Source of the DNA: a virus
Lineage: Duplodnaviria > Heunggongvirae > Uroviricota > Caudoviricetes
Reading direction: 5' to 3' (one strand)
IMG/VR virus record: IMGVR_UViG_2671180673_000014
DNA: 10,142 nucleotides
Shown here piece after piece: positions 4,774 to 10,142 of this stretch. The position numbers were made by a program, and so were the translations under genes. The stretch's first letter is position 1, and each line of letters opens with the position of its first letter. The notes below the pieces were generated by a model. That model worked only from the letters and a program-made list of their open reading frames with translations, searched no databases and had not been told where the DNA came from.

Positions 4774-4826
4774 GGGCGGCAGAGCAGTCACGGAGTAAAA
4801 CTGATACCGCCAAACGTCACCAGAAA
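4774..4826 (-). ncRNA. dicF: DicF small regulatory RNA (53 nt), antisense regulator of ftsZ and other mRNAs
   Basis: The reverse complement of 4774-4826 is TTTCTGGTGACGTTTGGCGGTATCAGTTTTACTCCGTGACTGCTCTGCCGCCC, followed by TTTTTAAAG. This matches the K-12 DicF sequence as I recall it, including the GGCGG...CCGCC 3' hairpin and U-tract. It lies between ydfC and dicB as in the K-12 dicB operon. Confidence 0.85.
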
Positions 4827-5544: not shown

Positions 5545-5700
5545 TCACTCACCTGAGTTTCTTTCCAGCCAGCGACGGGCACCATTTTCGGTTTTAAACG
5601 TTTTGCTTTTGGTATACGTCATTGCGGTGAACGTGCCGTCCTGGTTTGGAAACACGCCGTACACCAGAGATTCGTTGTTGCCAAGATCGATAGTATCCAT
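5545..5700 (-). CDS. ydfA: YdfA-like small protein (51 aa)
   Basis: ATG at 5698-5700 preceded by GAGGT. Translation MDTIDLGNNESLVYGVFPNQDGTFTAMTYTKSKTFKTENGARRWLERNSGE. The longer track ORF (to 5778) is an upstream extension running into the promoter. Confidence 0.75.
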   Translation of the reverse strand: MDTIDLGNNESLVYGVFPNQDGTFTAMTYTKSKTFKTENGARRWLERNSGE

Positions 5701-5777
5701 GCTGACCTCATTTCCCCTTAACGCTGGGGTAGCGGAACTGTTTGCTGAGAACACCGTGCGGTGTGTTGATGCAAACA

Positions 5778-5806
5778 AGATTAGCCATGACTAACATATC
5801 GGTCAA
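5778..5806 (-). promoter_or_regulatory. Sigma70-type promoter of the leftward dicB operon
   Basis: On the minus strand: -35 TTGACC (plus 5801-5806), 17-bp spacer, -10 TAATCT (plus 5778-5783). It lies about 70 nt upstream of ydfA, and operator-like palindrome O3 overlaps the -10. Confidence 0.55.
5781..5794. promoter_or_regulatory. Operator-like palindrome O3 (TTAGC-CATG-ACTAA) within the dicB operon promoter
   Basis: 14-bp inverted repeat with the same architecture as O1 and O2 in the dicA-dicC intergenic region. It overlaps the -10 and spacer of the leftward promoter. Confidence 0.5.
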
Positions 5807-5866
5807 GTGATTTTGTATGCTATAGCTAACATGATTGATGTAGTAAAAGATAACTCATTGATGATG

Positions 5867-6274
5867 TTATCTTTTATTTGTCCGCTGACGGGCTTTTAGT
5901 AATTCTTCAAAGAGTTTATTGAAGTTTTTTACTCGAGCTCGCATTTCGGCGAGCTGGGTATCCTGTTCTGATTCTGGCAGTGCATTAAACAGCTCAAGGA
6001 GCTCTAGTTCTTTGGGGGATAAGGCAACTGGCTTCTCAACAGGTGGTGTTGGTTGCTTGTCTTCATCGCCAAATAGAATCCATGTTGGTGAGCATTGCAA
6101 TACTTTGCTGAGGGCAAAAAGGTTCTTCCCTGTAGGTTCACTATCACCCCGTTCCCATTGTGATACAGACACATGGGAGATTTTCAGGGCTTTAGCAAGA
6201 GACCTTTGGGTGTGTTTGAGGTTTTTCCGACGATACCTGATGCGTTCGCCGATAGTTAAATTTTTTGTTTCCAT
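5867..6274 (-). CDS. dicA: DicA repressor, XRE-family HTH, cI-like (135 aa)
   Basis: Translation METKNLTIGERIRYRRKNLKHTQRSLAKALKISHVSVSQWERGDSEPTGKNLFALSKVLQCSPTWILFGDEDKQPTPPVEKPVALSPKELELLELFNALPESEQDTQLAEMRARVKNFNKLFEELLKARQRTNKR, with the helix-turn-helix at HTQRSLAKALKISHVSVSQWE. It is divergent from a Cro-like gene. Confidence 0.9.
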   Translation of the reverse strand: METKNLTIGERIRYRRKNLKHTQRSLAKALKISHVSVSQWERGDSEPTGKNLFALSKVLQCSPTWILFGDEDKQPTPPVEKPVALSPKELELLELFNALPESEQDTQLAEMRARVKNFNKLFEELLKARQRTNKR

Positions 6275-6276
6275 AG

Positions 6277-6290
6277 TTAGCTAATGCTAA
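6277..6290. promoter_or_regulatory. Operator-like palindrome O1 (TTAGC-TAAT-GCTAA) next to the dicA start codon
   Basis: Perfect 5-bp inverted arms with a 4-bp spacer, 3 bp from the dicA ATG (6272-6274). Confidence 0.5.
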
Positions 6291-6296
6291 ATCGTA

Positions 6297-6325
6297 TTGA
6301 CTATGTTTTTGTTAACATCTATCTT
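6297..6325 (+). promoter_or_regulatory. Sigma70-type promoter of dicC (rightward, Cro-like transcription)
   Basis: -35 TTGACT (6297-6302), 17-bp spacer, -10 TATCTT (6320-6325); predicted start site about 6332, with dicC ATG at 6358. Confidence 0.5.
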
Positions 6326-6343
6326 GTTAGTTATGACTAACAA
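6324..6343. promoter_or_regulatory. Operator-like palindrome O2 (TTGTTAGT-TATG-ACTAACAA; core TTAGT-TATG-ACTAA at 6327-6340)
   Basis: Perfect 8-bp inverted arms with a 4-bp spacer, overlapping the -10 and start site of the dicC promoter. Confidence 0.55.
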
Positions 6344-6357
6344 TAAAGGTGTTTTAA

Positions 6358-6588
6358 ATGCTTAAAACTGACGCTCTTTTGTATTTCGGTTCAAAAACAA
6401 AACTTGCACAAGCAGCAGGTATTCGTTTGGCTTCGCTTTATAGCTGGAAAGGGGATTTAGTTCCCGAAGGTCGCGCGATGCGTCTACAGGAGGCATCTGG
6501 CGGGGAGCTTCAGTATGATCCCAAAGTTTATGATGAATATCGTAAGACGAAGCGGGCGGGGCGGTTGAACAATGAAAATCACTCCTGA
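6358..6588 (+). CDS. dicC: DicC, Cro-like regulator (76 aa)
   Basis: Translation MLKTDALLYFGSKTKLAQAAGIRLASLYSWKGDLVPEGRAMRLQEASGGELQYDPKVYDEYRKTKRAGRLNNENHS. AGGTG lies 7 nt upstream. Divergent from dicA. Confidence 0.85.
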   Translation: MLKTDALLYFGSKTKLAQAAGIRLASLYSWKGDLVPEGRAMRLQEASGGELQYDPKVYDEYRKTKRAGRLNNENHS

Positions 6589-7093
6589 ACAGGCTCGTGA
6601 GGCTCTGGATGCCTGGATATGTCGACCAGGAATGACACAGGAGCAGGCGACGATATTAATCACTGAAGCATTCTGGGCTTTGAAAGAGCGCCCGAACATC
6701 GATGTTCAGCGTGTCACATATGAAGGTGGCGCGATTGATCAGCGAGCGCTTGGCGTTAATCGAGTGAAGATATTTGAACGCTGGAAGGCTATCGACACCA
6801 GGGATAAGCGTGAAAAGTTCACGGCGCTAGTGCCTGCAATTATGGAGGCTATCCGGATTAATGATTTCAGGTTGTATCGTGAAATTACTGACGGAAAAAG
6901 CATCACGTGCATGATCGCCGGGTTAAACAAAGAATATGGCGATGTGGTGGAGTCCGGACTGCTTTTTGCTGATCCTGCCGTAGTGGATCGTGAAACTGAC
7001 GAACTTATAGAAAAAGCAATTGCTTTCAAACTTGCGTATCGACAGCAATACCAACAAAAAGCTGGATGGAATTATGAGCCTTCTTTTTGCTGA
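6572..7093 (+). CDS. YdaT-like protein, putative CII functional analogue (173 aa)
   Basis: Position immediately after the Cro-like gene, overlapping the dicC 3' end by 17 bp. The segment DKREKFTALVPAIMEAIRINDFRL resembles the corresponding motif of Rac YdaT as I recall it. The family assignment is tentative. Confidence 0.5.
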   Translation: MKITPEQAREALDAWICRPGMTQEQATILITEAFWALKERPNIDVQRVTYEGGAIDQRALGVNRVKIFERWKAIDTRDKREKFTALVPAIMEAIRINDFRLYREITDGKSITCMIAGLNKEYGDVVESGLLFADPAVVDRETDELIEKAIAFKLAYRQQYQQKAGWNYEPSFC

Positions 7094-8039
7094 ACGCCCA
7101 CTGGTTATAAACACGCAGCTGGCAATGAAAATTGGCTTAAACGAAGCCATTGTTTTGCAACAACTGCACTACTGGTTGAGAGATACCAACTCCGGCATGG
7201 AATGTGATGGTGTTCGCTGGATTTATAACACAACGGAACAATGGCTGGAACAGTTCCCATTCTGGTCAGAGTCAACGTTAAAGCGCGCGTTTGCAAGTCT
7301 GAAAACGCTGGGGCTTTTGCGTTGTGAAAAGCTCAATAAATCAAAGCGCGATATGACCAATTTCTACACGATCAACTATGGGAGCGAGCTTTTAGATGGT
7401 GGCAAATTGAGCGAATCCATCGGTTCAAAATGCGCCGCTCCATCAGGTCAAAATGACACGATGGAAGAGGTCAAAATGAAACGCTCCATTGGTTCAAAAC
7501 GACCCAATGTCATCGGGTCAAAATGGCCTGATGATCTTACAGAGAATACAACAGAGATTACTACAGAGAATAAAAACACTTTTCGTCCGGAAGCTTCGCA
7601 ACCGGACCCGCAGACGACTGAACAGGATTTTTTAACCCGGAACTCCGACGCGGTTGTGTTTAGTGCGAAAAAACGCCAGTGGGGTAGCAGGGAGGATTTG
7701 GCGTGTGCGCAGTGGATCTGGGGGCGGATCGTGGGTCTCTACGAACAGGCAGCCAGTGATGATGGCGAGATCATGCGACCAAAAGAGCCTAACTGGACTG
7801 CCTGGGCCAATGACGTGCGCACAATGCGGATGCTGGATGGCAGAAGCCACAGACAAATTTGCGAAATGTTTGGTCGGGTTCAGCGAGATCCATTCTGGGT
7901 AAAAAACATCATGAGCCCGTCAAAGCTCCGCGAAAAATGGGACGAACTGGTCATCCGCCTGGGACGTTCACCTGTACAGCGTTGTGTTAATCATATTTCT
8001 GAACCGGATACAGAAATTCCGCCTGGTTTCAGAGGATAA
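7074..8039 (+). CDS. Phage replication initiator (O-like) with N-terminal winged-helix region, iteron-encoding linker and DnaT-like C-terminal domain (321 aa from ATG at 7074; the track ORF starts on TTG at 7020)
   Basis: The C-terminus SEPDTEIPPGFRG closely parallels the C-terminal tail of E. coli primosomal protein DnaT as I recall it (SEPDSQIPPGFRG). The N-terminal region is helix-rich (LAMKIGLNEAIVLQQLHYWL). Five direct repeats lie inside the gene. Confidence 0.75.
   Translation: MSLLFAERPLVINTQLAMKIGLNEAIVLQQLHYWLRDTNSGMECDGVRWIYNTTEQWLEQFPFWSESTLKRAFASLKTLGLLRCEKLNKSKRDMTNFYTINYGSELLDGGKLSESIGSKCAAPSGQNDTMEEVKMKRSIGSKRPNVIGSKWPDDLTENTTEITTENKNTFRPEASQPDPQTTEQDFLTRNSDAVVFSAKKRQWGSREDLACAQWIWGRIVGLYEQAASDDGEIMRPKEPNWTAWANDVRTMRMLDGRSHRQICEMFGRVQRDPFWVKNIMSPSKLREKWDELVIRLGRSPVQRCVNHISEPDTEIPPGFRG
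7416..7525 (+). repeat. Five direct repeats (iterons) at 23-24-bp periodicity, putative replication origin inside the initiator gene
   Basis: R1 7416-7432 tccatcggttcaaaatg; R2 7439-7455 tccatcaggtcaaaatg; R3 7462-7478 tggaagaggtcaaaatg; R4 7485-7501 tccattggttcaaaacg; R5 7509-7525 gtcatcgggtcaaaatg. Analogous to lambda ori iterons within gene O. Confidence 0.6.
7538..7578 (+). repeat. Three tandem ~12-bp A-rich repeats (ACAGAGA-A/T-TA) flanking the iterons
   Basis: tacagagaataca / acagagattact / acagagaataaaaaca, directly downstream of the iterons, where an A+T-rich unwinding region would be expected. They encode the repetitive linker TENTTEITTENKN. Confidence 0.4.
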
Positions 8040-9892: not shown

Positions 9893-10142
9893 TAGACTGG
9901 ATTTGCCCCTATATTTCCAGACATCTGTTATCACTTAACCCATTACAAGCCCGCTGCCGCAGATATTCCCGTGGCGAGCGATAACCCAGCGCACTATGCG
10001 GATGCCATTCGTTATAATGCTCGAACGCCTCTGCAAGGTTCTTTGCTGCCGTTAACCCGTCTGGTTTGGGCATGATACTGATGTAGTCACGCTTTATCGT
10101 TTTCACGAAGCTCTCTGCTATTCCGTTACTCTCCGGACTCCG
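9893..10142 (-). mobile_element. Right end of an IS2 (IS3-family) insertion sequence, continuing beyond the window
   Basis: The terminal sequence tagactggatttgcccctatatttccagacatctgttatcacttaaccc matches the IS2 right inverted repeat as I recall it; the exact boundary is uncertain between 9893 and 9898. The adjacent minus-strand frame encodes the InsD C-terminus. Confidence 0.8.
9909..10142 (-). CDS. insD: IS2 transposase OrfB (InsD), C-terminal part only; the N-terminus lies outside the window
   Basis: The minus-strand frame, open to the window edge, reads [77 protein letters not shown]. This is the end of the IS3-family integrase-core (rve) domain, with the HSALGY box. Stop TAG at 9909-9911. 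Confidence 0.8.

Follow-up and report, generated by a model that had tools for sequence, protein, structure and literature searches.

The stretch of DNA analysed in this study (10,142 bp, hereafter the window) contains the immunity region of a Qin-type lambdoid prophage. About 1.5 kb around the palindromes described below matches several E. coli chromosomes at 100% and K-12-lineage genomes at 99.8%, and in the matching E. coli chromosomes it is annotated as dicA, dicC, ydfA, ydfB, and ydfX/YdaT. Escherichia phage PhiR42_1 shows 100% identity to the window over 901 bp. The genes present are dicA, dicC, ydfABC, dicF, and dicB. The dicA gene (5867-6274, minus strand) encodes a CI-like repressor of 135 aa with an N-terminal HTH_3 domain, dicC (6358-6588, plus strand) encodes a Cro-like repressor of 76 aa belonging to the Pfam family P22_Cro, and ydfA (5545-5700, minus strand; DUF1391) is the first gene of the dicBF operon. 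The initial annotation had named these three genes correctly. The DicF RNA (4774-4825, minus strand) was the only match in an Rfam scan of the window, and the regulatory regions matched no RNA family.

DicA matches the HTH_3 (1.3e-16) and Phage_CI_repr profiles, its best match in the PDB is the N-terminal domain of the P22 c2 repressor (E 8e-20), and DicC matches P22_Cro (1.7e-11). The two genes are divergent, with 83 bp between them. The locus therefore shows the divergent repressor/cro pair, the HTH repressor, and the Cro-family partner by which a lambdoid CI/Cro switch is recognised, as well as intergenic dyads overlapping both promoters and dyads of the same family at a PL-like promoter. 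The LexA-like (S24) autocleavage domain that allows RecA/SOS induction is the exception, since a profile search gave no Peptidase_S24 match in the 135 residues of DicA. DicA also has no Ala-Gly cleavage site and is not induced by mitomycin C, being controlled by the antirepressor Rem instead (PMC10448788). Because it lacks the S24 domain and the cleavage site and responds to Rem, DicA belongs to the antirepressor-controlled subgroup, like the Gifsy repressors. On the other side of dicA, a perfect 11-bp inverted repeat (5844-5876, minus strand) spans the stop codon; it is likely the dicA terminator, which would insulate the dicB-operon promoter (dicBp), and hairpins also follow the repressor stop codon in other immunity classes.

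Three 14-bp palindromes of one family had been reported in the initial annotation, and the sequences are found exactly there. O1 (6277-6290; TTAGCTAATGCTAA) reads TTAGC-TAAT-GCTAA and O2 (6327-6340; TTAGTTATGACTAA) reads TTAGT-TATG-ACTAA, both with perfect 5-bp arms, and O3 (5781-5794; TTAGCCATGACTAA) reads TTAGC-CATG-ACTAA with arms paired at four of five positions. The common pattern TTAGYNNNNRCTAA (TTAGY-N4-RCTAA) has exactly three matches in the 10,142 bp when both strands are searched, where 0.03 are expected, and none of 200 dinucleotide-preserving shuffles of the window gave three matches. The reading in which the three matches arose by chance in AT-rich intergenic DNA has the AT-richness of the regions, and nothing else, in its favour. 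In addition to the above counts, it is opposed by the comparison of related loci: the pattern occurs three times per locus, at kept positions, in the five loci of the DicA class, and it is absent from the other 25 loci. Therefore, the operator palindromes are real and far from chance, and the chance reading, whose probability is negligible, is already refuted.

O2 corresponds to the operator Oc of the literature, at which DicA binding has experimental support. Its arms can be extended to 8 bp (TTGTTAGT/ACTAACAA, 6324-6343), and a still longer, imperfect dyad was found there by inverted-repeat search; the reverse complement of O2 is the 20-nt Oc, TTGTTAGTCATAACTAACAA, cloned by Yun et al. (PMC3441716). 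In that study of 2012, multicopy PdicAC clones were obtained only with point mutations in Oc, repression through Oc in vivo was DicA-dependent and was abolished by one base change, and an EMSA with crude extract was positive for Oc (PMC3441716). Cloned Oc is toxic since it titrates DicA. DicA represses dicC via Oc, yet it is required for the activity of the dicA promoter (PMC3441716). Reg-Seq work also recovers a DicA site at dicC, annotated at -8..+12.

The dicC promoter (dicCp; 6297-6332, plus strand) has a -35 hexamer TTGACT at 6297-6302 (-35..-30), a 17-nt spacer, and a -10 hexamer TATCTT at 6320-6325 (-12..-7), with +1 at 6332. This start point is the one on which the -11 A rule, applied with the +1 mapped by 5'RACE (PMC3441716), and the DicA site at -8..+12 agree. 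The 20-bp operator (6324-6343) thus occupies -8..+12 of dicCp. The initial annotation had placed O2 over both the -10 and the start of dicCp. The 14-bp core (-5..+9) does cover the start, but the -10 is reached only by the extended arms, and by 2 bp. A generic promoter scan returned dicCp as its sole match, and the dicA promoter (dicAp) and dicBp fell below threshold with 3-4 of 6 positions in the -10 hexamer; for these two promoters the hexamers were assigned manually, that of dicA from its published transcription start site (TSS) and those of dicBp from conservation across immunity classes.

The dicA start is also published. In K-12, the dicA TSS is at 1645954 and the coding sequence starts at 1645957, giving a leader of 3 nt (PMC4681348 supplement); dicA is among five E. 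coli mRNAs classed as leaderless, with the TSS from dRNA-seq confirmed by RLM-RT-PCR (PMC4681348). It also appears in lists of known leaderless genes. On the window, this start gives a dicAp core at 6277-6289 (minus strand), in which +1 is 6277, the first base of O1, and the -10 hexamer TAGCAT (6284-6289; -7..-12) lies entirely within O1. O1 thus spans +1..-13 of dicAp and contains its -10. Upstream of the dicA ATG there is no Shine-Dalgarno sequence, the leader being ACU; with a TSS within a few nucleotides of the start codon and no Shine-Dalgarno sequence, the dicA mRNA is of the leaderless type. The suggestion in the initial annotation of a leaderless or short-leader mRNA is therefore borne out by the published TSS 3 nt upstream of the ATG (PMC4681348). 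That annotation had also placed O1 3 bp from the ATG (6272-6274); O1 does abut the start codon, but the gap is 2 bp (6275-6276). An alternative -10, CATTAG, which would suit a transcript beginning with the AUG itself, was rejected since the published 3-nt leader puts TAGCAT at -12..-7.

No recognisable -35 for dicAp was found in the upstream sequence, which accords with the view of Yun et al. that dicAp does not follow the consensus and needs DicA (PMC3441716). Since O1 spans +1..-13 of dicAp, a protein on O1 must block dicA transcription. Autoregulation through O1 had been proposed in the initial annotation. dicA is indeed autoregulated, but what has been demonstrated is positive control via Oc, as opposed to negative control via O1. 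The -35 of dicCp falls at -20..-25 of dicAp, so that both RNA polymerase sites overlap. Therefore, relief of competition from the strong dicCp could make up part of what is called 'activation' of dicA when DicA is at Oc.

O1 is almost certainly the site Oa, judging from the names. Oa and a further site, Om, were predicted from sequence by Bejar et al. in 1988, as stated by Yun et al., who also report that isolated Oa and Om showed no DicA binding in vivo, the sole reported test and one with data not shown (PMC3441716). Published evidence of DicA binding, from genetics, an in vivo assay, and the crude-extract EMSA, is confined to Oc.

Beyond the three palindromes, the window contains two weaker candidate sites, which the initial annotation had overlooked. 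The first, at 6302-6315 (TATGT-TTTT-GTTAA; 7/10 to the consensus), lies in the dicCp spacer and, from its position and the name, is almost certainly the published Om. Its centre is exactly midway between the strong intergenic sites, 25 bp from each; the centres of O1 (6283.5), Om (6308.5), and O2 (6333.5) thus follow each other in 25-bp steps. The second, O4 (5816-5829), lies upstream of the dicBp -35 and reads TATGC-TATA-GCTAA, with two mismatches. When up to two mismatches are allowed, the window holds 17 matches to the pattern where 11.8 are expected. Since the enrichment is then gone, Om and O4 are supported by comparative evidence and not by window statistics.

The dicB-operon promoter was placed at 5771-5806 (minus strand), with a -35 hexamer TTGACC at 5801-5806 (-30..-35), a 17-nt spacer, a -10 hexamer TAATCT at 5778-5783 (-7..-12), and a predicted +1 at about 5771; its -35 and its layout are conserved across immunity classes. 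O3, at about -10..-23, is the putative promoter-proximal operator of dicBp; other immunity classes keep a site at this position, with the sequence specific to the class. In the initial annotation, O3 was said to cover the -10 of this promoter. It does overlap 3 bp of the -10 (5778-5783), but the remaining 11 bp lie in the spacer. O4 is a putative weak distal operator at about -45..-58, with its centre 35 bp from that of O3. In an 89%-identical locus (L002), the equivalent of O4 is TTTGCCATGACTAA, with one mismatch, and classes B and D have an almost perfect palindrome in its place. It appears that O3 would be the main operator of dicBp and O4 an auxiliary one.

It is established that DicA represses dicBp, by 22-fold in the study of Ragunathan et al. 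2023, where the DicA operators overlapping dicBp are still only 'predicted' (PMC10448788). The Reg-Seq compilation of 2020 graded the DicA site at dicB as low-evidence and gave its location as unknown; the comparative evidence places this operator at 5781-5794, with a weak partner. The proposal of one repressor family acting at three promoters, made in the initial annotation, agrees with the published action of DicA on dicC, dicA, and dicBp.

When arms of 7-8 nt are considered, the half-site consensus of the dic operators is about (A/T)TGTTAGY. Both halves of O2 fit it perfectly, and O3, O4, and Om have one good half each (ATGTTAGT, ATGTTAGC, and ATGTTAAC, respectively) and a poorer other half. 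The halves of O1, AGTTAGC and ATTTAGC, keep the TTAGC core and miss the outer TG of TGTTAGY. The arms, of 5-8 bp around N4, are conserved in all immunity classes and the central 4 bp vary. P22 c2 repressor binds 18-bp dyads of which the central 4 bp are not contacted, and contacts positions 2-7 of each half-site. By sequence, the arms and spacing of the dic operators fit this c2-type architecture, and the predicted contacts would be similar, with a half-site of about TGTTAGY around 4 bp that are probably left uncontacted. In P22 the half-site is TTAAG, and in the dic operators it is TTAGY. Since P22 repressor contacts positions 2-7, the lack of the outer TG in O1 could explain why DicA would bind isolated Oa weakly.

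To compare immunity classes, loci were collected by megablast among E. coli prophages with conserved flanks (ydfA, YdaT-like) and replaced repressor/cro N-termini and regulatory DNA. Further loci, from Citrobacter, Enterobacter, Rahnella, Symbiopectobacterium, and others, came from scanning species-representative genomes with a protein pattern. Among the repressors, the C-terminal half is conserved and most of the variation falls in the HTH, and the Cro proteins differ, by immunity class, only in the first ~33 residues. The layout of the regulatory DNA is constant. Read in the repressor sense, a first dyad is at -66..-63; next comes a dyad or half-site whose end immediately precedes GTCAA (the -35 of the cro promoter), and a further dyad stands 1-2 nt from the ATG of the repressor gene; past the repressor stop codon follow a hairpin, a dyad, a -35 CTTGMC, a dyad, and a -10. 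At the O1 slot, 1-2 nt from the repressor ATG, a palindrome of the class family is found in seven of nine immunity classes. Under the 5-N4-5 model, classes I and J (SHVTIFKW and SSVSVFKW) have no clear dyad in this slot, and the conservation of O1 is therefore claimed for the seven classes. The Om slot, directly after the -35 TTGAC, opens in other classes with the half-site of the class, TTAGG in two classes and TTGAG in one.

The half-site differs with the recognition helix of the repressor. SHVSVSQW, the helix of DicA (the window and L002), goes with TTAGY; AHVTISQW (L003, L008, L011, and L014-L017) with TTAGR; SGSSISLW or SDSSISLW (L004 and L023) with TTGAG; and SSVSVFKW (L024 and L025) with (A)TAAC. 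Counts of exact patterns behave in the same way. As TTAGY..RCTAA is confined to DicA-class loci, so TTAGR..YCTAA occurs two to four times per locus of the AHVTISQW class, three frameshifted remnants included; outside this class and its remnants there is one site only, in the related SHVTISQW locus L022, and the window has none. At 35-42% identity, the remnants (L027-L029) resemble distant relatives; as they derive from class-B repressors by frameshift, they did not count as a class of their own.

The covariation was scored with one representative for each of the nine classes, the O2-equivalent of each class being compared with the DNA downstream of the repressor genes. The best two downstream sites scored 16.8/20 with their own class and 14.1 with other classes, a difference reached in none of 20,000 permutations. 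At the O1 slot the scores were 7.2/10 for the own class and 6.2 for other classes (p about 0.001). Across the classes, the half-site thus changes together with the recognition helix, and this covariation supports all of the sites, including O1, as putative operators; the helix-3 residues SHVSV, AHVTI, and SGSSI appear to pair with the changes at positions 3-5 of the half-site. For O1, Om, and O2 the covariation could partly be co-inheritance because these sites are tightly linked to the HTH codons of the repressor. For O3 and O4 it is a stronger argument for function since the conserved half of the repressor gene separates them from the HTH codons.

This comparison bears on whether O1 is an operator at all. 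If the O1 palindrome were a by-product of the dicAp -10 TAGCAT and the initiation region, one would expect to find the -10 and +1 of dicAp inside O1, as is the case, and the negative binding result for isolated Oa (PMC3441716) would also follow. However, a -10 requirement would constrain one arm only, and in the O1 slot both arms track the half-site of the class, being, for example, TTAGC/TTAGC in the DicA class and TTAGA/TTAGG in the AHVTISQW classes. A by-product of the promoter is therefore quite improbable.

The same covariation argues that the palindromes are read by proteins of the phage. A host factor, either the TetR-family protein YjdC/DicD or an H-NS/Cnu complex, might be proposed instead, as YjdC is enriched at dicABC by ChIP-qPCR, CnuK9E with H-NS antagonises DicA at Oc (PMC3441716), and the crude-extract EMSA contains an additional, DicA-independent shift (PMC3441716). 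However, a host protein cannot explain half-sites that co-vary with the phage repressor/Cro regions within one host species, and single-base mutations of Oc remove the DicA-dependent repression (PMC3441716). It is thus very improbable that such a factor is the reader of these sites.

It is highly probable that in the Qin-type switch DicA and DicC, both dimeric HTH proteins, read one family of dyad operators at five sites. Three of these (Oc/O2, Om, and Oa/O1) would lie between the divergent dicC and dicA promoters, and O3 and O4 would flank the -35 of dicBp. The most likely mechanism is a bistable switch like those of P22 and lambda; in the following scheme, what O1, Om, O3, and O4 each do, the order in which either protein prefers the sites, the cooperativity, and the promoter competition are inferred. 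DicA dimers would occupy Oc first, which would silence dicCp and permit or activate dicAp; at O3, and probably O4, DicA would silence dicBp, so that DicB and DicF stay off. DicA is inactivated by Rem, heat, or urea, and DicC is needed for switching (PMC10448788). Upon inactivation DicC would be made, would bind the same operator family and block dicAp via O1, and would lock the opposite state. The occupant of O1 that silences dicA may thus be DicC, in the manner of Cro at lambda OR3, or else DicA, either bound cooperatively or present at high concentration.

The occupancy by DicC itself is established: ChIP-seq of DicC gives two sites flanking dicA and a matching motif, and overexpressed DicC occupies the intergenic region and represses dicA 48- to 84-fold. 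These results may be taken further, to suggest that O1 (Oa) serves DicC (Cro) essentially alone, as the analogue of OR3, and that DicA uses only Oc and O3. Such a division of sites would account for the lack of DicA binding to isolated Oa in vivo (PMC3441716) as well as for the strong repression by DicC from the intergenic region. It would also suit the outer TG of TGTTAGY, which is missing in O1 and present in O2, O3, and O4, and the Cro N-termini, which vary with immunity class as the repressor does. However, the negative Oa test is based on data not shown and on an isolated site, which excludes cooperativity, and the resolution of ChIP-seq is too low to split O1 from Oc, 50 bp apart. In lambda, P22, and 434, the repressor and Cro share all three OR sites, which they bind with opposite preference orders. 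A site for DicC essentially without DicA is therefore possible but somewhat doubtful; it refines the five-site model, and the two are not mutually exclusive. Under the five-site model, the more specific proposal is that Oa/O1, in spite of the negative published test, is a selected operator which doubles as the -10 and start of dicAp, and which may serve as an OR3-like off-switch, with DicC as its first occupant and with DicA binding there only by cooperativity or when its concentration is high. Taken together with a recognition code between helix 3 and the half-site, this proposal has about an even chance of being correct.

The arrangement can be compared with the well-known switches. P22 immC (c2, Cro, OR1-3/OL1-3, and PRM/PR/PL) is alike in its divergent genes and promoters and in its dyads with a 4-bp centre; it differs in that a short helical C-terminal domain in DicA replaces the LexA-like autocleavage domain, and in that dicBp, the PL-like promoter, has only two evident sites where P22 has three. 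As at lambda OR/PRM, the intergenic operator at dic is tripartite with a spacing of ~25 bp, and the repressor-proximal operator overlaps the repressor promoter, O1 at dicAp corresponding to OR3 at PRM. The lambda cI mRNA is leaderless, and the dicA mRNA is nearly so, with a leader of 3 nt instead of 0. Relative to the dicA TSS (6277), the centres of O1, Om, and O2 are at -6.5, -31.5, and -56.5, whereas the centre of lambda OR2 is at about -42. Therefore, a lambda-like activation by sigma contact from the middle site is not obvious at dic. The dic switch is bistable like that of lambda, but its induction is by the antirepressor Rem and not by RecA (PMC10448788).

Overall, the palindromes are a correct rediscovery of the operators of the DicA/DicC immunity switch, a known system studied since the 1980s: the operators received their names in 1988, validation of Oc followed in 2012, the short leader of dicA was reported two years later (2014), and the DicC motif dates from 2024. 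All elements of the interpretation in the initial annotation were already in the literature, and the operator layout explains the toxicity of cloned Oc and the flipping of the cryptic prophage between states, all of which are established. What this study adds is that the -10 and +1 of dicAp fall within O1, where the operator pair at dicBp lies, and that sites and repressors covary across classes. The comparative evidence argues that Oa is functional; it is useful for annotation and for the design of footprinting experiments, and leaves the general picture unchanged. The K-12 Qin dic locus (Oc, Om, and Oa; Bejar et al. 1986/1988) is the same locus, and its intergenic dicA-dicC DNA, which holds the mapped starts of dicC and dicA, is identical to the window base for base. 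In the dicA-ydfA spacer, K-12 differs by two substitutions (5835 and 5844), both outside O3 and O4. Compared with K-12 Qin, the window comes from a more complete relative, with intact integrase, excisionase, and exonuclease VIII (835 aa), but its regulatory DNA is not different.

Alignments of dicA (5867-6274, minus strand), which encodes the CI-like repressor, and dicC (6358-6588, plus strand), which encodes the Cro-like protein, with the related immunity modules of loci L002-L008 revealed abrupt mosaic boundaries within both genes. Between immunity classes, the hetero-immune versions of this module, there is almost no variation at repressor residues ~60-135 or at Cro residues ~34-76, and the N-terminal, DNA-reading part of each protein is swapped. 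The conserved C-terminal domain of DicA could be the shared target of the Rem antirepressor.

A perfect inverted repeat with 11-bp arms and an 11-nt loop (5844-5854 / 5866-5876) lies across the dicA stop codon, and a different hairpin occupies the same position in other immunity classes. The repeat is probably the dicA terminator; if so, it would shield the promoter of the dicB operon from read-through. Downstream of that promoter, within the stretch predicted to be the operon's 5' leader (approximately +8 to +21), there is a perfect 14-bp palindrome, ACACCGTGCGGTGT (5751-5764), which is unchanged across loci from three immunity classes (A, B, and C). Since its sequence does not change with the class, the palindrome is not an immunity operator; it could instead form a 5' stem-loop or be the site of another factor. 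Six single N bases were found in the dicB-dicF region (4596, 4632, 4644, 4750, 4926, and 4947), the first three of which fall within the dicB-containing ORF; the rest of the window has no comparable N bases.

Over the 901 bp that were compared, the window is 100% identical to Escherichia phage PhiR42_1 (PV340562.1), which is from ECOR13. In K-12 Qin, the integrase, excisionase, and exodeoxyribonuclease VIII are decayed, whereas all three, including an 835-aa exodeoxyribonuclease VIII, are intact in the window. Therefore, DicA-type immunity is also carried by a far more complete phage, which is possibly active. The PhiR42_1 record labels the ydfA (DUF1391) region (5646-5855 of that record) as 'head-DNA stabilization protein D' and a YdaT-family gene (6673-7194) as 'cII'; a Pfam search of the window proteins gave no support for either label. 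The same record annotates mobile-element genes immediately past the position equivalent to window 9909-10106, where the end of a short minus-strand ORF resembles the C-terminus typical of IS3-family (rve) transposases. Together, these two features indicate that an IS element is inserted in the early-right region.

Frameshifted remnants of class B repressor genes occur in E. coli and Shigella flexneri genomes (L027-L029), and they retain several TTAGR-N4-YCTAA operators as well as the promoter layout. Immunity regions of the E. coli-type DicA family were also found on short contigs binned into Collinsella sp. (L010), 'Bacillota bacterium' (L020), and Veillonella parvula (L021) metagenome-assembled genomes; the L010 repressor is 99% identical to DicA. 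These contigs are most likely Enterobacteriaceae prophage DNA introduced by binning contamination.
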